DNA of 64,000 nucleotides. It comes from a virus. Its lineage: Duplodnaviria; Caudoviricetes. The stretch's first letter is position 1. Every line of letters starts with the position of its first letter. The position numbers and the translations under genes are program-made. Shown here in pieces: positions 1 through 28,612 of the stretch. Under the pieces are notes generated by a model. It saw only the letters and a list, made by a program, of their open reading frames with translations, did no database searches and had not been told where the DNA came from. The stretch is taken from IMG/VR virus record IMGVR_UViG_3300020576_006967, positions 124,934 through 188,933 of that record; one strand, given 5' to 3'.

Positions 1-129
1 TTAACCGCACTCCAGATGTGTGCACTTGCTACCAGAAGGACCGCAATGATGATGTAAATAATTGTCTCCATAGTTGAACTTTTGTTAATAAATATGTTTA
101 AAAAAGGTCTGGGAAAATTTGGAAAATTG

Positions 130-158
130 TGAAACCTTTTATATCTTTGTTCGTATAA
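130..158 (+). promoter_or_regulatory. Class A phage promoter (ECF-type TGAAAC-N16-CGTATAA), first of 13 copies
   Basis: Same 29-bp motif on + at 3482, 5930, 9972, 16514, 18762, 27117, 29901, 39257, 40159 and 43649, and on - at 54269-54297 and 59936-59964. Sits upstream of ORFs. Confidence 0.85.
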
Positions 159-178
159 TATTAAAATCAAGACGAAAG

Positions 179-829
179 ATGCAAAAGACAGCCACGCAAA
201 CAGCCACAAACAGCGCAAGCAAAGGGTTAACAAAGAACGTAATTCAATTCCGTAATGGTTTTGTAAATTTACCAAGTTCTAAATCGGCTAATTATCAGAT
301 GGCAATGTCTGTTACTGCTGAACTTATGCAATTTGGTTATATTCTTGAACAATCTGCTATAACAAATTTGAGCTCAGCTTCCAAAGAAGATATTATAAAT
401 TTCCACAATGAAATAATTGTGTATTTAAAACATATGACTGGTTCTAATAGAAACTACCAAGCTTTCTATTCTGGTTTTCCAACTCAAGTAATGGAAATGT
501 CTGATTGCGAACTTTGGGTAAACCAAATTGTTCATTATATTTCTAATGGTCGTTTTGTTCCAAACGAATGGACAAAAGAAAAACCGACAGCTTTCGAGAA
601 TTCAAAATATACAAAAATTGGTTCTGGAAATGATGAAAAATTTATAAACATTTTTACTGATTTGGTAAGTGTAAACAACTCTTTAACACCAGACGATCAA
701 AGCATTATTGAGTTTTTTATAAGCAATGGAATTGAATTAAGATTTCCTGACCAGATACCATTTAAAGAAAATCTTTGCAAGGTTATAGGTGAATTAGCTA
801 AAAGTGGTAAAAAAATAGAAATTGAATAA
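179..829 (+). CDS. N-terminal half of a split TerD-domain-associated helical protein
   Basis: ATG at 179 downstream of the promoter at 130-158. Motifs ELMQFGY, FYSGFPTQVMEM, NQIVHY and IPFKENL resemble, from recall, the N-terminus of large proteins ending in a TerD-like domain. Confidence 0.65.
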   Translation: MQKTATQTATNSASKGLTKNVIQFRNGFVNLPSSKSANYQMAMSVTAELMQFGYILEQSAITNLSSASKEDIINFHNEIIVYLKHMTGSNRNYQAFYSGFPTQVMEMSDCELWVNQIVHYISNGRFVPNEWTKEKPTAFENSKYTKIGSGNDEKFINIFTDLVSVNNSLTPDDQSIIEFFISNGIELRFPDQIPFKENLCKVIGELAKSGKKIEIE

Positions 830-889
830 AAACCATAACAGACTTTGTTTTTTTTAAAAAAACTTAATATTTATATTAAAAAGTCTGTT

Positions 890-1804
890 ATGGAAGAAAA
901 AACTAAGTATTTTATTGGCAAAGCAAAAAAAACACATGGAAACAAATATGATTACTCTTTAGTTGAATATAAAAGTAGTCGAGAAAAAGTTAAAATAATT
1001 TGCAAAAATCACGGAGAATTTGAGCAACAAGCTAATTCTCATTTGCAAGGAAAAAAATGTATGCAATGTTCAATAGAAGAAAGATCTTTGAAAAGAAAAA
1101 ACACAAAAAAAGAATTTATAAACAAAGCGATTGAAATACATGGGAAAATTTTCGATTATTCAAAGGTTGACTATGTAAACAATAAAACTAAAATTAAAAT
1201 AATTTGTAAAAATCACGGAGAGTTTGAACAAAGACCAGATTGCCACTTATTTTTAAAACACGGATGTCCAAAGTGCGGCGGCACTTCAAAAGTTAGCTTA
1301 GAAGAGTTTAAGAAAAGAGCAAATGATAGACACGATGGTTTTTTTAATTATTCAGCAGTAACATTTAATAATATTACTGATAAAGTTGAAATAAATTGTC
1401 CAAAACATGGCCCATTTATACAAGGTGTTAAAGCTCATTTAGATGGAAATGCTTGCCCTAATTGTAAGACTTCAAAATTAGAAAACAAAATTTTAAAAGA
1501 AATAAAAGGAATAACAAATGAAATTAGAATTAAACAATTTTACAAGAGCGCATGGTTAGAAAGACAACATATTGATATTTTTTTGTTAGATTTTAATATA
1601 GCAATAGAGTGTCACGGAATACAACACTATGAGGTAATTGAAAAATTTGGAGGTGAACCCGCATTCAAAAAAAGAATTGAGTTGGATTCTAAAAAAAGAA
1701 AACTGTGTGCAGAAAACAATATTGAACTTTATGAAATTCCGTATTTTTATAACAAAAGTGAATTGAATGAAGTTTTACAAAAAATAAAAAACAAAATAGC
1801 ATAA
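890..1804 (+). CDS. Free-standing homing endonuclease (tandem HG-x-YDYS / C-x2-HG-x-F-x-Q / CPxC zinc-ribbon repeats plus C-terminal PD-(D/E)XK-like domain)
   Basis: Three YDYS..IICKNHGEFEQ..CPKC-type repeats, then HIDIFL..IAIECHGIQHY. Paralog at 57786-58913. Confidence 0.8.
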   Translation: MEEKTKYFIGKAKKTHGNKYDYSLVEYKSSREKVKIICKNHGEFEQQANSHLQGKKCMQCSIEERSLKRKNTKKEFINKAIEIHGKIFDYSKVDYVNNKTKIKIICKNHGEFEQRPDCHLFLKHGCPKCGGTSKVSLEEFKKRANDRHDGFFNYSAVTFNNITDKVEINCPKHGPFIQGVKAHLDGNACPNCKTSKLENKILKEIKGITNEIRIKQFYKSAWLERQHIDIFLLDFNIAIECHGIQHYEVIEKFGGEPAFKKRIELDSKKRKLCAENNIELYEIPYFYNKSELNEVLQKIKNKIA

Positions 1805-1817
1805 AAAAACAAAGCAT

Positions 1818-3455
1818 ATGAACACAACATTAAATAAAGAACAAAACACTATTGTGTTAAAAAATTTAAAACTGACCGTGACAGATATTTTGCGTGTGGC
1901 AGTTCATATGTCTGGTGGAGATATTTCATTGCCAAAGGTGCCAAGAAAACTTATTAGAGCTAACAGATGGAGCTCACATCAGTCTGCCAATCCAGAGCGT
2001 GAAAAATTTAAGTTTAAAAGCTTTTCTCGTCCTGAACGTAGAATTATCCTTTCTCTTCTTGAGAAAACAAATTGTGATGCTTCCGAAGCAAAACTTAAAG
2101 CGCAGCGTTGGGCAAAACTTGGTCATTCACTTCACGTTGGTGAATATGCAAAGAAATTTCCAAAAGCTTTAGCTATGTTCAATTCTGTGCGTAATGAAAA
2201 GGTGCAGTCTTGGTATGGTAAAGTAAATAGCGCATTTGCTTCTTCTTTTAACGAAGGAATTAAACTTCTTTCACAAAGACCAGGTGAATTTATGCGTAAA
2301 CTTGACTGGTTGCTTAGAACAGAGGTTTCAAGCACAAAACCTTTTAAAGGAAATATCCTTGCAAAGTATTTTACTAAGGATCCACATGTTTCAGATTCTT
2401 TAAAGAAGTTGACCCTTGAAGAAAGAGTTGCTCTTGTATTGGATGTGTTTAAAGTTATTGCTCCTAAAGTAAGTAACAAAGTGTTATATGAAGCATATAG
2501 CCATTTTGAAGGGCGTTACGAGGAAAAAACTAATAGAACTATTATGGTAAAGGGTTCAAGAAAAAGAACTACATTACCTAGTTTGCCAGCTATTCCAGCA
2601 AGTGTAATTGAATCAGTTCAGCGAGGTGTTATTGAAGCTCTTATGAGTAAATTTGCTGCATTACCAAAGCTTGAAAAAGTTTATGTGGATGAGCAATTAA
2701 AAAACATTCCTATGCCAACTAACATGCGTTCTTTAAATTCTTCGTTGAAGCCTACTATCAGAGGTTTGAGAATGCCTATTGGAAACACAGACTCTAAGGT
2801 AATTCGTGTTTATGTTCACTGGTTCGATGAACGTGGAAATAAAGATATTGACTTGAGCACAACTTTTGTTGGAAATAACAAGCAGCCAATTGTAATTGCT
2901 TACACAAATTTGAGAAATGAGTTTACTACTCACTCAGGTGACGTAAGGCACCGTCAAGGTGCTTGTGCTGAGTACATCGACATTGAAATTGCTAAAGCAC
3001 GTAAGGCTGGATACAAATATGCAACTGTTGATATCAGAAACTTCAATGGTGGATCTCTTGCGTCAATTAAGGACTGTGTGTTTGGCTTCATGGAGCGTGA
3101 GTTCCCAGAGTCTAACAAGACATTCTTACCTTCTACATTGGCAAATTCAATGAAGTTGGAAAGTTCATCTACTGTAACTTTGGCCGTGATTATTGATCTT
3201 GAAACCAGAGAGTACATATATATGGACATTGATTCAACATCGTTGCCAGTTGCTTCTATGTCTGTAAAAGACACTATTGCTGCAATTAAGCCTTATACAG
3301 ATGCACCAAAATTCTCTGTATATGACTTAGCATTGCTTCACGCAGAAGTTAGAGGTGCAGAACTTGTTGAGAAAGAAGAAGAAGCTAACACCTGCTTTAA
3401 GTTTGAAGAATATAGCCAAAGCTATATCGAAATACTTAAACTCATGGGAGTTTAA
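1818..3455 (+). CDS. C-terminal half of the split protein, with TerD-like C-terminal domain
   Basis: TVTDILRVAVHMSGGDISL and RPGEFMRKLDWLLR, then TerD-like DIDLS..HSGDVR..GACAEYIDI. Confidence 0.7.
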   Translation: MNTTLNKEQNTIVLKNLKLTVTDILRVAVHMSGGDISLPKVPRKLIRANRWSSHQSANPEREKFKFKSFSRPERRIILSLLEKTNCDASEAKLKAQRWAKLGHSLHVGEYAKKFPKALAMFNSVRNEKVQSWYGKVNSAFASSFNEGIKLLSQRPGEFMRKLDWLLRTEVSSTKPFKGNILAKYFTKDPHVSDSLKKLTLEERVALVLDVFKVIAPKVSNKVLYEAYSHFEGRYEEKTNRTIMVKGSRKRTTLPSLPAIPASVIESVQRGVIEALMSKFAALPKLEKVYVDEQLKNIPMPTNMRSLNSSLKPTIRGLRMPIGNTDSKVIRVYVHWFDERGNKDIDLSTTFVGNNKQPIVIAYTNLRNEFTTHSGDVRHRQGACAEYIDIEIAKARKAGYKYATVDIRNFNGGSLASIKDCVFGFMEREFPESNKTFLPSTLANSMKLESSSTVTLAVIIDLETREYIYMDIDSTSLPVASMSVKDTIAAIKPYTDAPKFSVYDLALLHAEVRGAELVEKEEEANTCFKFEEYSQSYIEILKLMGV

Positions 3456-3456
3456 T

Positions 3457-3482
3457 AAAAAGGGCCTCAGGGCCCTTTTTTT
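3457..3482 (+). terminator. Intrinsic terminator
   Basis: AAAAAGGGCC-TCAG-GGCCCTTTTTTT immediately after the stop at 3455. Confidence 0.85.
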
Positions 3483-4055
3483 GTAACCTTTTTGTTTTAT
3501 GTGCGTATAAGATTATAAATCGTCTAAAAAATGAAAAACGGTAAATGGTTGTTCTTATTATACCTTCTTTGTCTAGCTGTTGGATTTGTATGGAGTGTTA
3601 AGATTTATTTCGATAATTGGAATAGAATAATGAGTGACCACGATAAGTTTGAATTATATAAATATCCAGTTGGCGTGTTGTGTTTGGGTATCATTGCATA
3701 TAACTTTCACAAAGTATTCTATGAAAAAGAGTAACAAAGTCAATAACTCTACAAAAAGAAATTTCCAGCTTCAAGGTTTGTGGTTTACTCAAAAAGAAGC
3801 GACCTATTTGGTTCGTGAAGCTAAAAAAATTGGTTTTACACCAATGTCTCAGTACGCAAAGGAAAAAGTTTTTAATAAAAAAGAAGTTCTTGGTTATATT
3901 TATTTCCTTCATACAAAAAGCGAAAACACATTTCGTTTGGATAAATTTGAAATTAAAAACGCTGGCTTAGATATATTTAAAGATAACGTTTCGAACATTT
4001 TTTTTACTCTATTATTTAAGCAGCACGAAGAAAGCATATCTATTTACCACGAAGA

Positions 4056-4556
4056 ATGACGATTCCAAAAAACATAGCTAAGGCTCTCGGAAACCCTGGA
4101 ATATGGGCGTATGTAAAAGAAAAATATTACAACGAGGCAATTAATTATCTTGACAAAGAGCTTGATGAATTTCACGACAAAAAACGTGGAGATATTAAGG
4201 TAAAATTTAAAGACTTCGACTATAAACATGAAATTGATGCTTGTGATTTCTCACACGAGAAATTTCAAGACGAAGATGTGTTGATTGGTATTTGGAGAGT
4301 AAAAAAAGAATATCTTATTCCAGACCTTGATGATTATGAAGATATGGTTAAAGATAAAGATTGCAAGTTTTGCCGCAGAGAATACCCGTCAAGAAAAATA
4401 TCTCTTGATGGTTTAAAAGTTGAGCACTATGACCATGATGGCGGTTGGCCCGTAAGAGGATTTGCAAAAAAGCAGTGGCTTTATGTGGTTTGCCCAGGAT
4501 GTGGTCACCAACACTCATTTAATCATCTTGGAATTAGTAAAGAAGTAAAGCAATAA
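4056..4556 (+). CDS. Hypothetical zinc-finger protein
   Basis: CKFC and CPGCGH motifs. Confidence 0.5.
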   Translation: MTIPKNIAKALGNPGIWAYVKEKYYNEAINYLDKELDEFHDKKRGDIKVKFKDFDYKHEIDACDFSHEKFQDEDVLIGIWRVKKEYLIPDLDDYEDMVKDKDCKFCRREYPSRKISLDGLKVEHYDHDGGWPVRGFAKKQWLYVVCPGCGHQHSFNHLGISKEVKQ

Positions 4557-4557
4557 T

Positions 4558-5169
4558 TTGGATTACGAAAAACAAATAGATATCATAAGAAGCGTAACTC
4601 ACAGTATAGAACCTCACAAAGTGACCATACTTACTGGAAAAAACGGTAGCGGTAAATCTCTTGTAAGAAAAATATTGAGTGGAGTTATAAGTGAAAAGTG
4701 TGGAACTGATATCAAACACACTGTTGCCGCAGTTTCTATGGAATCTAGATCAAATCGCAAAATGGATTTCAGCGCTCTTAATTCTGCTGGCATTGACGAT
4801 CCTGAAAATCCAACTGGTTTAGAAAGTCTTCACAATCTGGACATGATTCTTGGATCCTTTACAAAGGACAGTCCAAGATATATTGTGATTGACGAGCCTG
4901 AGCTTGGCATGGGTGAAGAAATGGTTGTTGCTTTTGCTAACAAATTAAACTCTGTTTTTGAAACGCTTCCAGAGGGTTGTTTGGGTGTTATGATCATTAC
5001 TCACAGTCCAACAATGATAAAGCTGTTAAAAGGCAAATTTGCTAACATGGAGGGTATGACTCGTGAAGAATGGCTTAATAGAGAAATTATACCCACTGAT
5101 TTAGAGCAATTTAAGGTTGATTCCCTGGGTCTTTGGAGGGCAATACAAAATTATTCGAAAAAAAATTAA
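4558..5169 (+). CDS. Small ABC-type ATPase
   Basis: Walker A GKNGSGKS, Walker B IVIDEPE, H-loop ITHS. Confidence 0.8.
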   Translation: MDYEKQIDIIRSVTHSIEPHKVTILTGKNGSGKSLVRKILSGVISEKCGTDIKHTVAAVSMESRSNRKMDFSALNSAGIDDPENPTGLESLHNLDMILGSFTKDSPRYIVIDEPELGMGEEMVVAFANKLNSVFETLPEGCLGVMIITHSPTMIKLLKGKFANMEGMTREEWLNREIIPTDLEQFKVDSLGLWRAIQNYSKKN

Positions 5170-5176
5170 AAAATAC

Positions 5177-5207
5177 TTGCTATTTATTTGAAATAGTATT
5201 ATATTTG
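5177..5207 (+). promoter_or_regulatory. Bacteroidota housekeeping-type promoter upstream of the ncRNA array
   Basis: TTG (5177), 20-nt spacer, TATATTTG (5200-5207), matching the -33/-7 TAnnTTTG consensus. Confidence 0.65.
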
Positions 5208-5234
5208 TACTCAGAAAGTTCTTTTACGTATTTT

Positions 5235-5850
5235 AAACAAACTAAAGCAGGCCATGTGTCTAGTTACTTCTATCTCTTGAAATGATTTTACTGTCACGCT
5301 TTCCAGCTTTACTTTGTTTTACAGATATTCAAAAATATTGACGGCCATCTGTATTCTTACTTCTCGCCGAAAGGCATTCAATTGTTAACTGAAACCACAG
5401 AAGCAGAATTACCGTCTTTGTTATTGGAGGCCATGTGTCTACTTACTTCTAAATTTTTCAGCAAAAAAAACATTAGTATCACAATTTCCTCCTGTTATTT
5501 CAAATAAGTTTAAACGGCCACATGTCTAGTTACTTCTACTTTTATTCCAAAAAACTACTAGCATAATTACCGTTTAAACTTATTTACCTTATTAAACTGG
5601 CCATGAGTCCAGCTACTTCTACAGATCCACCTCAAGGAGGATTACCAAACTGCTAGCTCAATTACCAGTTTATGTTCTTTAAAATATTGTCAATTCAGGG
5701 CTAAACGGCCATGTACCCAGAGACTGAAAACTACTTCATCAGGTTCCCGTAATTGGAACCCGTGAAAGTTCAGAGTCTGCAGCTACTTCTATACAATTAT
5801 AAAATAGAGATGATCTTATGATCGGATGCTGATACAATTACCGCCTGGAA
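5235..5850 (+). ncRNA. Array of six structured RNA units (stem-GG-CCAT-stem-stem-TACTTC-variable-stem-stem-AATTA-CC-stem)
   Basis: Units at 5235-5319, 5340-5416, 5426-5492, 5502-5585, 5593-5672 and 5695-5850. Conserved loop motifs with compensatory changes in the stems. No ORF in the track. Confidence 0.85.
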
Positions 5851-5884
5851 AAACAATCATCGGGTCATCTCGACCAGAACAATA

Positions 5885-5920
5885 ATCCGCCATTACACAT
5901 AAGAACATGGCGGATTTTTT
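5885..5920 (+). terminator. Intrinsic terminator closing the ncRNA array
   Basis: AATCCGCCAT...ATGGCGGATT followed by a T tract. Confidence 0.8.
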
Positions 5921-6940
5921 GCTTTTAATTGAAACCTTTATGATAGTTTTACGTATAAATGTATATGAATCTAACAATTTATCATGCAAAGAAGAGACGA
6001 AATAAAAGAATTGCTAAAACATCTTTTAGGTAAAGCTAAAGACGCTATAAATACTAAAGCTTACTCCGATGATTTTAAAGAAGTTTTAAAATCATCACAA
6101 GAGGTTGTGGTAATATCAAAGCAAATTGAAACTTATATGACCGAATTAAATGAAATCACTGATTAACTTCATTATGTATAAAATTTTTCGTCGCACGTAT
6201 TGGCGTTTAAATGCTATTTTGGGTTTTATTTTATTGAACTCATTTAGTTTGCTGGAGGCAATATTTACAAAAAACTCTTATGCAGAATACTATGAAGAAA
6301 ATATGGTTGTAATTAAAAACAGTTGGAACAAATATTAAAAATGAAAACAATACCATTTAAAATACCCTTACAAGGAGCGCCAGTGTTTAGCAAGTCTCCA
6401 GCATTTATAATAAACTCAAGTGAGAATATACTGATTGTAGAGGTTAGCATGAAAAGCAAACGGTGTTTGGTGGAAAGTATTGTTGGCGGAGATGATGAAA
6501 TGCCAGGTTTGTATATTTGTGCTTCTGAAAATTCTGTCTGGTTAAAAAGTGGAAAACGTGTAAACGAACCAACTTGTATTATGTTTCCAACACTAAAAGA
6601 TTGGAACCATTTTTGTTCTGATATTGGCAAAAACACATTAAGAATTTGTTTTTTAAAAAAATAAAATGGCAAAAGGCGACTGGATAAAAGCTCAGGCTTT
6701 TCCAATATACTACATAGATTCTTGGAGTTCAGATGAAAGCAAATTCATTCTAAGAATTGAGCAGTTGGTGCTTGAAGAGGGAAGACCATGGATTGTTGAT
6801 GTAATGGGAGTTGAGAAATTTCTGGTAATTGGTGAAGACAATCCAGATAAAGTTAAAAGACTTGCAAAGAAATATTTGCGAGAGGTCATTAAAAAAGTGG
6901 CTTGGACACTTGATATGAAAAATTTGGACACAGAATAATT

Positions 6941-7192
6941 ATGAAAAAAATAATTTTAATTTTTGCAATTTTAATTGCTTCTTGTAAAGAAAGAGCAACA
7001 GTTGTTATTGATGGCTGTGAATACATTGAGACAGAGAATTTTAATGGTGAAGGAGTTAATACTTCTTTAACTCACAAGGGTAATTGTAAAAACCCAATTC
7101 ACCACTATGTAACTCCTGATGTAAAAAATGACACAATTGTGTTGCCATTAATTTCAGGCCCACTTATTTTAGACACATTAATTAAAAAATAA
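6941..7192 (+). CDS. Small lipoprotein (paralog of 28613-28882)
   Basis: Lipobox-like IASC. CEYI and THKGNCK motifs are shared with 28613-28882. Confidence 0.6.
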   Translation: MKKIILIFAILIASCKERATVVIDGCEYIETENFNGEGVNTSLTHKGNCKNPIHHYVTPDVKNDTIVLPLISGPLILDTLIKK

Positions 7193-7196
7193 AACC

Positions 7197-7754
7197 ATGA
7201 ACAATCCTAAAAAAGCATTATTGGACAAAGCGTTAAACGCTCTGTTTCTTGCGGTTGATGAAAAGATTGCACAAGACATTTCAAATAAAGTTATTGAAGC
7301 GTTTGAAGAAAAAAACGTTGCTGGTGAAGATTTTTATCTAGATGAAGAAAACGCCTACCAAAGACTTAAAGAAGAGTACGAAAAATATCATACTCTTATC
7401 GTGGCCTATGACTTTGGAAACACTGTGTTTGATTACAATAACAAAGGAATTACTTTTCAAAATGTTGTAGAGCTTTTAAAAGTGTGCAAAGAAATTGGCT
7501 GTCACCTATCTGTATTCACCTCTGATGATGATGATAGCATTCAGGATGTAAAGAATTACCTGGACGAAAACAACATCCCTTACGACAGCATTAACGAGCA
7601 CCCAGATTCAATCAAGTTCAAATCTAAAAAGATCTATTACAACATTCTTTTGGATGATAGAGCTGGTTTACCATCTGCTTACAGAGTGTTGTCTAGAGTT
7701 GCTTATGGAGCAAGGATGAAAAAAATGCAAATTGGAATGACTGACGTGGCTTAA
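7197..7754 (+). CDS. HAD-superfamily-like hydrolase
   Basis: IVAYDFGNTV (DxD-like, second D absent), FTS and LLDDRAG motifs. Confidence 0.6.
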   Translation: MNNPKKALLDKALNALFLAVDEKIAQDISNKVIEAFEEKNVAGEDFYLDEENAYQRLKEEYEKYHTLIVAYDFGNTVFDYNNKGITFQNVVELLKVCKEIGCHLSVFTSDDDDSIQDVKNYLDENNIPYDSINEHPDSIKFKSKKIYYNILLDDRAGLPSAYRVLSRVAYGARMKKMQIGMTDVA

Positions 7755-8528
7755 TGGAAGAAAGAATAATATGTGCAGCTAACTGGTACAAAGATTTGCA
7801 AAAGCCTGTATACGGTCCAAAAAACATTGTAGAAGGCATTGTGTTCTGTGGTCATAGTCACTTAATGTGTTTGCATCAAATGATTGCAATGACTGGTAAA
7901 AGACAAGCTGAAGTTGGAGCGTATGAAGAGGGTTTTATTACAAGTACAAATAGATTTGTTACAAGAGAAGAGGCTGCTAAGATTGCGCTTTCTTGCAAGC
8001 AGATTGAAAAGCTGAAGTACAGCAGCAAAGATTTGTACAGCGAAGATTTATATTAATAATAATTTATTTAAATATGTTTGGATTTTTATACAGAGAAATG
8101 GAAAGCACAGGGTCTGGAGACCGATTTCCCAAGAGGATTGAAAAATTTAGAAAAGCTGAAAAGCGCTTTCCAATATTGCAGCACTATTTTTGGTGGTTTA
8201 CGCATAACTGTATAACTCATCCGTTAATTGGTTTGATTCCAGTAAAGTTATTCTTCCAATTTCATGATTGGACAAGCGTAAAGCTAAATGCTGGAGAATC
8301 AGCTTTATCAACTCCGCTGGATGATTTGGAAGCCTGTAAGGCTCAAGCTAAAAAAATACATGAAAAGCTAAAAGAAATAAGCGGTAATGAAGAAGCAGAT
8401 TCTATTTGGGAAACATTGGTTTTAATTGAAGCTTTAGAGGCAGATATTCGATATAATCAAGATCAAAAACGTGCTGGCAGATTAAGAAGAGCAACAAGAA
8501 TAATTTTTAAAGAACAACAAGAGAAAAT

Positions 8529-9299
8529 ATGAAAGACGCAATAGGAGATAGAATGAAGGAAGATTTCGAGGATAGAACTCGAATTTCATTGCCAAGAAGA
8601 AGTTACACAATAGCGAGAATTGACGGGAAATCTTTCCATACTTACACCAGAGGTCTTACAAGACCTTTTGACGACGGATTGATAGAAGATATGGATTTAA
8701 CAGCTGCGTACCTGTGCAAGAACATTATGGGTGTTAAATTCGCATTTGTACAATCTGATGAAATTTCTTTGTTACTAACAGATTTTGAAGATATTGGCAC
8801 ACAAGCCTGGTTTGACAATAATTTACAAAAAATGTGTAGCGTTTCAGCTTCTATGGCGACAAGAGCTTTTAACGAAGCTAGACTTAAAAGGTTTGTAAGT
8901 GATAAAGTGTTTTTTACAAAATGGGCCGAGTTCGATAGCAGGTTTTTCCAGATTCCTCAAAAAGCAGAAGTGTTCAATTATTTCTTGTGGAGACAAAAAG
9001 ATGCCACCAGAAACAGCATTTCTTCTGTAGCGCAATCGTTGTATAGTCAGAAAGAATTGAATGGAGTTAACTCTGATCAAAAACAAGAATTAATTTTTCA
9101 AAAAGGAATTAATTGGAATGATTATCCTTCTAAATATAAACGTGGGAGAATTATTCTAAAAGAATCTTACGAAAAAGCTCCAGATATAGATGTTATTAAT
9201 TCGTCTTCTTCAACTAGGACTAAGTGGATTAGTGTAGATACACCAATATTTACACAAGATAAAGAATTTTTGAATAAATTGATCCCAGATAATTTATAA
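8529..9299 (+). CDS. thg1: tRNA(His) guanylyltransferase Thg1-like protein
   Basis: RIDGKSFHTYT, FVQSDEISLL, FDSR, YFLWRQKDATRNSI and KRG motifs. Confidence 0.9.
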   Translation: MKDAIGDRMKEDFEDRTRISLPRRSYTIARIDGKSFHTYTRGLTRPFDDGLIEDMDLTAAYLCKNIMGVKFAFVQSDEISLLLTDFEDIGTQAWFDNNLQKMCSVSASMATRAFNEARLKRFVSDKVFFTKWAEFDSRFFQIPQKAEVFNYFLWRQKDATRNSISSVAQSLYSQKELNGVNSDQKQELIFQKGINWNDYPSKYKRGRIILKESYEKAPDIDVINSSSSTRTKWISVDTPIFTQDKEFLNKLIPDNL

Positions 9300-26936: not shown

Positions 26937-28612
26937 GTTATGAAAATAATATCAATAATAATTTGGTTAGTAGTGGTTTTTAATATGTGGATATTCGCCA
27001 CAAAAACAAAGGTAGAACCTGAAAAATTTAAACACCTTGAATTCAGGGTTAGAAGTATATTTTATTGGTTAGCTGTAATTAGTTCGTTTTTATTTGGAAT
27101 TATAGTGTGTAAACAATGAAACCTTTTACAATATAAATCGTATAAATTAAACCAACTTAAATTCAATGACATATTCAGATTTAAATAAAAAAGAAAATTG
27201 GACTAAAGCAGAAGCTTTTAAGATGATGATTTATTGTGCAAACACACTTAAAATGGTGCCTAGCAAAAACAAAATTTCTAAAGCAAAAAAAGCACTTAGT
27301 AATTGTAAATAACATGAAATACATTAAAATTAAATTGGCTAGAGCTTTAAGAGACAAAGGTTTTGTAGAACCTTGCTTGTGCTGTTTTGATGGAAGCGAT
27401 ATGCTTTCCACATACGTGAAATCTGTTTTTGAGCCTCTGAATTATAATACTGGAGGAAGCAAAAACACATCTGCTCCTACTTACGATGAAGTTCTTGAAT
27501 GGCTTCGTACAAAACACAAAATTCATGTGGCTCCATTTATAGGTCATGACGAGGATAAAATATGGTACAATTTTACATTGGAACCAATTGAATTAGGTTA
27601 TAATTATGAACCACATACTTGTGATGAGCAACCTTTTAAAGATTATTTTGACATGCTCGAACACGCTATTTTTGAGGCTTTAAAACACATCAAATGAAAC
27701 CACAAGGAATAAGACCAGAAGATAGTAGTTGTTGCCCAGGACACGCCAAATATGGCGTAAGGGGTCTTACTGCTAAGGGTGTAAAAAGACCACGTAAAAA
27801 AAGCAAGGATAAGCCTAGAAAGGCTAAAGAAAGAAAACTAGATCATGTTAAATTTACAGAAGACGACGGAAACTAAATGAATAAGCCAAATTATAAATAT
27901 ACAATTGATGGTAATGTAATCTTTATCGAGGATCTTGGAGGTCCTTTTCAATCGGTGACAAATGGGATTGAAACAGTACTTCAAGAGGTGTCTGATGATT
28001 TAGAAAAAAACGGAATTAGCGGCACTGGAATAAATAACTTCAAAGTAGTATACAAAGATTCTGATGGAGCAATAGATGGCGTTGCCATTGACTCCGATGG
28101 TATGTTTATGAATTTTTATCATATAGGTGCTAAAAACTTTTACGAAGCTAAACTAAAAATAAAGTAGTCATGGAAGAAAAAAAGTGCACCAAGGTAAAAT
28201 TTTTAACCCAAAAATATGCCGACTTTCATATTGTAAAAAACGAATACAGAAACATTAAAACAGGTAAAAAGGCCAGAAGTTATAAGTGCAAAATTTGTCA
28301 AAATTCATGGCACATTACTTCTAAAATAGAAAACTTTAAACTCGTCGAAGACAATGAGTTTTTATTTAACAAAGTTGAGGCGTTTAGAAAGACAAATCAA
28401 TCGTTAAGTGATGCAAATAATAAATTGATAAACAAAGAAAGAAAGGAACTTAGAGAAGAAGTGGTAATTTTACATTTAGAGAACCTTGTTTCAAAAAAAT
28501 CTGAGGATATAATTGGTATGTCTAAAAGAATAAACGATCTAAACACCTTTAATGAAGCTCTGCTTAGAAGAATAGATTCACTTGAAGAAGAAAAACAAAA
28601 AACAACTACATC

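Follow-up and report, generated by a model that had tools for sequence, protein, structure and literature searches.

A 64-kb stretch of phage DNA (the window), which is the final part of a 188,933-bp virus record in IMG/VR (G000; 74% complete according to CheckV, 32% G+C), raises the question of what kind of RNA is encoded by a tandem array of six structured units on its + strand. Each unit joins a constant paired part (the handle) to a variable insert (the cargo), and the original prediction regarded the array as an undescribed RNA system. The handle does not appear to be a new kind of RNA. Its identity is most likely that of a diverged Y-RNA-like array, because the same handle is present on a YrlA-type body in a related phage (G001; 154 kb in IMG/VR, 59% complete) and arrays of the same layout, including UACUUC, are present at the Ro60 (rsr) loci of Bacteroidota. 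Modular Y RNAs, in which a docking stem formed by both ends of the RNA carries a variable effector module, have moreover already been described for bacteria and phages (PMC4201824, 10.1101/312249, PMC12135203), so the claim of an undescribed system was not upheld. As judged from sequence, the interval probably is one transcription unit, and the six small RNAs that it encodes would be Y-RNA-like (Yrl) and belong to a subtype that is diverged and specific to phages. Binding of these RNAs to a Ro60-family protein is possible by analogy, and we rate it somewhat short of probable.

Architecture of the six units

The six units, which had been predicted to share one architecture, were all found in place on the + strand between positions 5244 and 5847 (Table 1), and every stem, loop and motif detail listed for them was reproduced, including the perfect 16-bp outer stem of unit 4 (U4; 5502-5517/5570-5585). 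From the 5' side, each unit contains an outer stem ending in G-G, the loop CCAY, a 3-bp helix, one to three unpaired bases, a second helix of 3-4 bp, TACTTCT and the insert. On the return strands, AATTA stands immediately before C-C and faces CCAY, the exceptions being AATTT in U3 and GCTTT in U1. Outer stems measure 5-16 bp (6/6 units), and the invariant UACUUCU of the RNA is followed by a variable cargo of 15-45 nt. Minimum-energy folds of U1-U5 recovered this architecture, and the fold energy of U4 was -21.9 kcal/mol (z = -6.9). A covariance model built on the phage units (R1) scored U1 at 65.6 bits and U3 at 75.8 bits, and its match to U6 was partial. U6 contains an extra branched hairpin of about 65 nt (5713-5779) on the 5' side, between the 3-bp stem and the second stem. 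This hairpin holds an additional copy of TACTTC at 5732 and includes GGTTCC-CGTAATT-GGAACC (6 bp, 7-nt loop); in the orthologous array found on a 76-kb metagenome contig (L147), a hairpin of merely 10 nt stands in its place.

Table 1. Coordinates of the array, its flanking signals and handle-bearing RNAs found outside the window
Feature	Position	Strand	GGCCAY start	TACTTC start	Description
Promoter-like site	5177..5207	+			TTGCTA-17-TATATT (5177-5205); consensus scan 9/12
Unit 1 (U1)	5244..5310	+	5250	5265	Outer stem AAAGCAGG/CCAGCTTT with one A.A mismatch; CCAT/GCTTT; 3-bp stem GTG/CAC; second stem AGT/ACT; TACTTCT; cargo 17 nt
Unit 2 (U2)	5340..5416	+	5343	5358	Outer stem GACGG/CCGTC; CCAT/AATTA; 3-bp stem CTG/CAG; second stem TTCT/AGAA; TACTTCT; GNRA-capped hairpin (CGCC-GAAA-GGC) opens cargo
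Unit 3 (U3)	5426..5492	+	5429	5444	Outer stem GGAGG/CCTCC; CCAT/AATTT; 3-bp stem GTG/CAC; second stem TACT/AGTA; TACTTCT; cargo T-run/A-run
Unit 4 (U4)	5502..5585	+	5516	5531	Perfect outer stem; CCAC/AATTA; 3-bp stem ATG/CAT; second stem TAGT/ACTA; TACTTCT; cargo 15 nt
Unit 5 (U5)	5593..5672	+	5599	5614	Outer stem TAAACTGG/CCAGTTTA; CCAT/AATTA; 3-bp stem GAG/CTC; second stem AGC/GCT; TACTTCT; small hairpin in cargo
Unit 6 (U6)	5696..5847	+	5707	5784	Bulged outer stem CAGG..CGG/CCG-CCTG; CCAT/AATTA; 3-bp stem GTA/TAC; second stem (C)AGC/GCT(G); TACTTCT at 5784
Small hairpin	5862..5876	+			GGTC-NTCTC-GACC; between U6 and terminator; conserved in L147 orthologue
Intrinsic terminator	5884..5920	+			10-bp stem (5884-5916) AATCCGCCAT/ATGGCGGATT; 13-nt loop; T run to 5920
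tRNA-Tyr(GUA)-like gene	G000:C1:1870-2004, outside window				ARAGORN with introns allowed: 48-nt intron at canonical 37/38 = loop-closed handle
D-arm-less tRNA-like RNA	G000:C1:2206-2302, outside window				GGGGGAG/CTCCCCC acceptor, T arm, encoded CCA; handle replaces anticodon arm
G001 handle-flanked unit	L129 1387-1525 = G001:C1 ~27,020-27,160	-			Cargo: tRNA 3' half, 15-nt linker, 5' half

On the + strand, the array is flanked by a promoter-like site and a terminator, as expected of one transcription unit, and this arrangement supports such a reading of the sequence. The predicted promoter (5177-5207) stood in part. The site is present and shared with L147, but its consensus match taken alone is no better than chance. 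In the alignment to L147, the -10 box and the bases downstream are identical; the alignment begins downstream of the -35 hexamer, but its letters are the same in the L147 sequence. The final 8 bases of the site, TATATTTG, also fit the Bacteroidota -7 box TAnnTTTG. The terminator, which had been placed at 5885-5920, was borne out by its 10-bp stem and T run, with a fold energy of -13.7 kcal/mol (z = -5.5), and was missed by a simple scan because its loop is 13 nt long. The L147 array has a counterpart of the same shape with a T run and different stem letters.

Covariation and exchange of cargo

The original prediction had held that the stems covary while the loops stay fixed, and an alignment of 15 units out of four phage contigs agreed with it. 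Of its cells, 92% were paired, and both sides changed in 10 of the 13 pairs. The covariation score was 0.714, in comparison with 0.21 for shuffled alignments (0/500 shuffles reached 0.714) and at most 0.14 when the partners were slid. Four of the six outer-stem pairs were altered on both sides, and the two loop-closing G-C pairs were invariant. G.U pairs occurred in the sense orientation only, which fits an RNA read from the + strand.

The L147 array shares the promoter-like site, the order of the six units, the hairpin after U6 and the shape of the terminator. U1-U3 are about 90% identical between the two arrays, and U1 differs by 2 bases. The U2 cargo hairpin is retained in L147 with other letters (CGCCC-GTAA-GGGC). 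U5 of L147 retains the outer stem, but its 3-bp helix reads TTG/CAA instead of GAG/CTC, TAGC/GCTA forms its second stem and it carries a different cargo. These compensatory changes in a six-unit orthologue agree with the earlier view that structure rather than sequence is conserved. The proposal of a constant handle with exchangeable cargo likewise held, as L147 keeps the handle and replaces most of the cargo of U4-U6. More units are present in three further phage-like contigs (L109/L143, L138/L141 and L139), and cargo similar to that of U2 follows the motif in one unit of L138 (unit c; contig Ga0302286_10004288) and in the G001 unit, there with a GTTA loop.

A tandem set of constant handles and variable inserts, which has its own promoter and whose inserts turn over between related phages, resembles a guide-RNA array of the CRISPR or TIGR type, in which the handle would bind an effector and the inserts would serve as guides against host or rival nucleic acids. 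The array had been judged not to be a CRISPR array, and this judgement stood: the conserved pieces are short loop motifs, and the stems vary in sequence and covary. The open reading frames (ORFs) scanned at window positions 119-9299 gave no Cas- or Nop-domain match, and a significant complement to the inserts was absent from the phage genome, where the best match was 14 nt long (E 0.011). Several inserts are themselves hairpins, and in relatives they can be whole tRNA-like bodies, unlike guides. A guide array is thus highly improbable.

Searches for the handle in other sequences

A match to a named Rfam family would have removed the novelty claimed for the array. Rfam 15 gave no family match: zero matches at gathering score were found across the 64-kb window, and positions 5100-6000 gave chance-level matches alone (E >=2.5; listed to E 10). 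BLASTN in near and distant modes against 50,697 phage records found no match to the array. The R1 model found nothing beyond the known units in G000 and G001. A scan of IMG/VR for the handle pattern gave G001 alone besides the record of the window, the remaining matches lacking the stems, and the DNA of G001 has no synteny with the window phage. A pattern scan of metagenomes added five contigs with true units (L147, L143, L138/L141 and L139). A strict DNA pattern in 185,579 species genomes gave three matches, all of which were rejected by the covariance model, and no true copy was found. An array pattern of the form GCAG..TACTTC..ATTCTC was too loose, and its matches were mostly due to chance. 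Likenesses noticed by eye to hairpin-ribozyme loop B, the 11-nt tetraloop receptor, the kink-turn, box C/D motifs, integron attC, REP elements and TIGR arrays were dropped, as defining nucleotides or partners were missing.

RNA arrays at the Ro60 loci of Bacteroidota

Genomes can encode more than one Y RNA, and phages are among the carriers (PMC4201824; 10.1101/312249). YrlA is a bacterial Y RNA that mimics tRNA, and its layout is defined by the order T arm, closed acceptor, D arm (PMC4201824; 10.1101/312249), with a conserved YUAY opening the effector module (PMC4201824). The bacterial loci used for comparison were L154, L156, L160-L162 and L165 of Bacteroidota (L156, L160-L162 and L165 being from genomes G004, G111, G031, G047 and G020) and three IMG/VR contigs carrying Rsr (L189, L225 and L211). 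YrlA-type RNAs were found no more than about 1 kb from a TROVE/rsr gene in six Bacteroidota genomes. In the locus of Puia sp., the TROVE gene (rsr) is followed by a YrlA match of 46 bits and then by rtcB, and the RNA reads CACAGG-UGCC-GUAG-AUAAGAGA-UACUUCA...CUUUUAU-CGCUUGUCG-CCUGUG. The general bacterial unit contains an outer stem, UGYYGUAR, a 7-bp stem, UACUUC(G/A), the cargo, the return strand of the inner stem, CGCUUGUYR and the return strand of the outer stem. Its cargo ranges from a bare loop through a T-arm hairpin to a full tRNA-like body.

In 14 aligned bacterial units, for which rsr lies within about 1 kb at the tested loci (all but G043), the outer and inner helices covary at 14/14 pairs. 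TACTTC is invariant in all 14 of these units and in 15/15 phage units, at the same structural position. The bacterial rsr loci contain 2-5 tandem units and the IMG/VR contigs with Rsr 2-9; the system therefore normally takes the form of a multi-unit array in which the handle is constant and the cargo varies. The RNAs adjacent to rsr score 46-47 bits with the Rfam YrlA model (RF02553), below its gathering threshold of 69 bits, and for this reason the threshold does not discriminate in Bacteroidota. Standard annotation probably misses the rsr-linked arrays of Bacteroidota, because all of them score below it.

The phage units resemble these Ro60-linked arrays of Bacteroidota and IMG/VR in being tandem, in their covarying outer and inner stems, and in having UACUUC straight after the inner stem, followed by variable cargo. 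The endings of the 3' loop are also alike, with AAUUA-CC or GCUUU-CC in the phages and ..GUUA-CC or CGCUU.. in the bacteria. A phage variant in L138, GG-CUAUAGAU, aligns with the bacterial GGUGCCGUAGAU, and as GG-CUAUAGAU / GGCUAUAGAU this variant is an intermediate bridging the phage and bacterial 5' loops. The Bacteroidota arrays differ from the phage units in having longer loops (8 x 9-10 nt), a 7-bp inner stem and a cargo that usually contains a T-arm-like hairpin. The Ro60-linked arrays, unlike the phage units, always adjoin rsr, and R1 and the covariance model of bacterial units (R2) do not cross-detect.

In comparison with the known YrlA and YrlB RNAs, the phage units share a stem formed from the 5' and 3' ends, a conserved internal loop and a YUAY (the UAC of UACUUCU) that opens the variable module. 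They also share the presence of several distinct tandem copies on one strand and a link to RtcB and tRNA genes. The window units differ in the GGCCAY 5' loop, an additional 3-bp helix, shorter loops and the absence from all six of a tRNA-like domain (T arm, closed acceptor-like stem and D arm). In addition, no Ro60 gene was found beside the array or in the available sequence, and the units are undetected by the Rfam model.

Proposed function in the phage

The ends of each unit pair into a rod composed of the outer stem (G-G/C-C), the loop CYAY facing NMUUW, the 3-bp helix and the second helix. If the array is Y-RNA-like, the rod would be the counterpart of the docking stem of Y RNAs, UACUUCU the counterpart of the YUAY that starts the YrlA effector module, and the variable insert an effector or tether module. 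The transcript would be cut into unit-length RNAs, for example at the outer stems between units, and the constant stem may dock a ring protein of the Ro60/Rsr type, either that of the host or an unrecognised one of the phage. The distal loops, some with GNRA-capped hairpins (U2), could each attract or obstruct a different partner, or else do no more than gate the protein. The phage might thereby redirect or block RNA surveillance, decay and repair of the host (PNPase, RtcB) during infection, a likely purpose in a phage equipped with tRNAs, an RtcB ligase and a Thg1-like repair enzyme. The gene context also favours a Y-RNA-like identity, since rtcB follows rsr and YrlA in Puia and RtcB is encoded by the window phage.

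Redirection of host RNA decay through host PNPase has been proposed for the Ro60/Yrl system of the Thermus phage phiLo, in which Ro60 with Yrl1/Yrl2 binds host PNPase (PMC12135203). Ro60 and Y RNAs have also been reported in mycobacteriophages, CcrColossus and Bacillus phage G (PMC4201824). The window phage would resemble all of these in encoding Y-RNA-like genes, which are thought to hijack host RNA decay (PNPase). These phages, however, carry their own Ro60 beside the RNAs, and phiLo has two RNAs with CGAA, whereas the window phage has six without CGAA and no Ro60 was found.

Several results weigh against a Y-RNA-like identity. The Rfam YrlA model has no match anywhere in the window. R1 found no match among 151 Bacteroidota genomes and none in the Rsr-linked viral loci. 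The best phage match of R2 has an E value of 0.011, so that the likeness at the profile level is weak. The Ro60-binding motif is GGUCCGA in animals and has been published as GNCGAAN0-1G in YrlA; on the 5' strand, the phage units read GG-CCAY-NNN, which is neither GNCGAAN0-1G nor the UGYYGUAG of Bacteroidota, and GG..CC-R-U is the sole resemblance of the phage 5' loop to the bacterial form. No TROVE/Ro60 gene was found in the 189 kb of G000 by six-frame Pfam search or by tblastn with Bacteroidota Rsr, and none in G001 or in any phage locus fetched. That the gene was missed by chance in both incomplete records would be roughly a one-in-ten event. The handle is unlike the host type yet strictly conserved in distant phages, which argues for a co-evolved partner, either a very diverged Ro60 or another protein. 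Lastly, any permuted tRNA would match the tRNA-like part of the YrlA model as the G001 unit does. Because of the weak cross-detection, the diverged 5' loop and the Ro60 gene not found, the Y-RNA-like identity is held no higher than probable.

A further reading is a decoy derived from Y RNA, in which Ro60 binding has been lost and the RNAs, by mimicking tRNA or Y-RNA features, soak up another host factor, for example a regulator of RNA repair, a tRNA-modifying enzyme or an anticodon nuclease. In its favour, searches of the two related phages (G000 and G001) gave no Ro60 gene, the handle loop is unlike that of the host type, tRNA scaffolds carry the handle as a graft, and the phage has RtcB and a Thg1-like tRNA repair enzyme. 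Direct evidence for another partner was not found, however, and the strict conservation of the loop and UACUUCU in distant phages fits any specific partner equally. We consider such a decoy unlikely.

The handle on tRNA-like bodies

When all available sequence of the window phage was searched for the motif, two further copies of the handle were detected within its tRNA cluster. Both are circularly permuted, with a loop closing the outer stem and a tRNA scaffold continuing from the inner end. One is the insert of a tRNA-Tyr(GUA)-like gene, in which CUUCU of UACUUCU pairs with AGAAG as the anticodon stem, CTTCT being its 3' strand. The other is an RNA devoid of a D arm, which gives a weak match to the transfer-messenger RNA model (E 0.008) and is conserved in G001. 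In G001 itself, a handle-flanked unit contains the V region, T arm, closed acceptor stem and D arm in this order, as in YrlA. This unit matches the Rfam YrlA model with 27.8 bits (E 3e-4; model positions 24-84), below the gathering threshold. When its permuted halves were re-joined, ARAGORN gave inconsistent Thr(GGU) or Ile(UAU) assignments, and no clear splice rule was obtained.

In these RNAs, the handle can also be read as a cut-and-join (splicing) signal. The intron would be removed from the tRNA by an endonuclease or by the RNA itself, and the exons would be sealed by the RtcB of the phage. In the array, the units would be permuted intron-exon units, from which a short 'exon' (ACUUCU and cargo) is released and circularised. 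Cyanidioschyzon merolae and Nanoarchaeum have permuted and split tRNA genes whose processing involves intron-like helices. The handle is similar to these genes in joining tRNA-like halves at the anticodon-loop position, and similar to 37/38 tRNA introns in its closed-loop form in the tRNA-Tyr-like gene. We kept cut-and-join as a reading because of this position of the handle in the tRNA-Tyr-like anticodon loop and the RtcB encoded by the phage; the pairing of CUUCU with AGAAG as an anticodon stem and the gene order of the G001 unit, which is that of a circularly permuted tRNA, also favour it.

Unlike permuted and split tRNA genes, the phage RNAs show no bulge-helix-bulge motif near the insert of tRNA-Tyr, and a search for a splicing endonuclease domain (PF01974) gave no match. 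The splice sites that would be needed are inconsistent: the Tyr gene has its site inside TACTTCT, unit e of L138 has it after TACTTCTAAAT, and unit g has it before the second stem. Between G000 and G001, the anticodon region of the Tyr-like scaffold changes fastest, with 5/14 bases different in comparison with 1/25 in the acceptor and D arms. Base 33 of the homologue in G001 is C33 and an A.C mismatch is present there, because of which the Tyr-like scaffold may no longer decode. An intact tRNA-Tyr is also present in L143, which is closely related to G001. The rsr-linked bacterial counterparts, moreover, fit Y RNAs, for which a closed acceptor stem is normal (10.1101/312249). A cut-and-join function for the handle is thus improbable. 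Its most specific form is quite improbable: that the handle is a new, non-group-I RNA signal of a bacterial virus, which leaves the tRNA-Tyr anticodon loop and closes the permuted units while RtcB seals. If it were true, the six-unit array would naturally give rise to circular RNAs of very small size.

Further RNAs with inserts or handles were observed in tRNA genes. L138 contains a mixed array of seven handle-bearing units inside a tRNA cluster (- strand, about 3065-3935), of which one is a complete tRNA-like body with a GAAA tetraloop in place of the anticodon loop. The same contig has two tRNA genes with closed-loop handles between direct repeats of 7-8 nt (ATCAGTCC/ATCAATCC and TGCATCC/TGCATCC). 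At G000:C1:4327-4458, ARAGORN with introns allowed reported an amber-reading tRNA (anticodon CUA) with a 58-nt insert. The insert contains AAAATTTCC and lacks GGCCAY and TACTTC; it may be a different or a degenerate insert.

Implications of a probable Y-RNA-like array

Y RNAs, their modularity, their mimicry of tRNA and their presence in phages are already known. What is new is a diverged handle subtype missed by Rfam, an array of six units that lack a tRNA part and have no Ro60 gene in reach, and the grafting of the same handle into tRNA scaffolds in both circular permutations. If the Y-RNA-like identity is correct, phage genes of this kind are more widespread and varied than current models detect, and Rfam YrlA misses a whole subtype. 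A phage with six Y-RNA genes but no obvious Ro60 of its own would then either have captured the Ro60/PNPase/RtcB machinery of its host or encode a partner protein that has gone unrecognised. The tRNA grafts in both permutations would be a natural series on stem binding and on the role of the tRNA-like part in YrlA, and the multi-unit arrays beside rsr of Bacteroidota are a ready comparative data set.

Gene context in the phage

The window phage carries many tRNAs. Its RtcB RNA ligase is encoded at G000:C1:18138-19214 (Pfam E 3.5e-33), and a Thg1-like tRNA-His guanylyltransferase at window positions 8529-9299 on the + strand (PHROG 4717, E 2e-84); both enzymes serve in the repair of tRNA and RNA. 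ORF matches at 119-9299 were a P-loop ATPase, an HNH endonuclease, a phosphoheptose-isomerase-like protein, the Thg1-like enzyme and proteins of unknown function. A 203-amino-acid protein flanking the array has no relatives in IMG/VR. An ORF of 545 amino acids upstream of the array was considered as a hidden Ro60 and rejected, as it had no Pfam or PDB match and the atlas leads were unrelated. A large gene matching PHROG 33734, of unknown function (119-3455, + strand), seems to be interrupted by an HNH/homing-endonuclease ORF (845-1804) that separates 119-829 from 1818-3455; this could be an intron or the insertion of a free-standing endonuclease.

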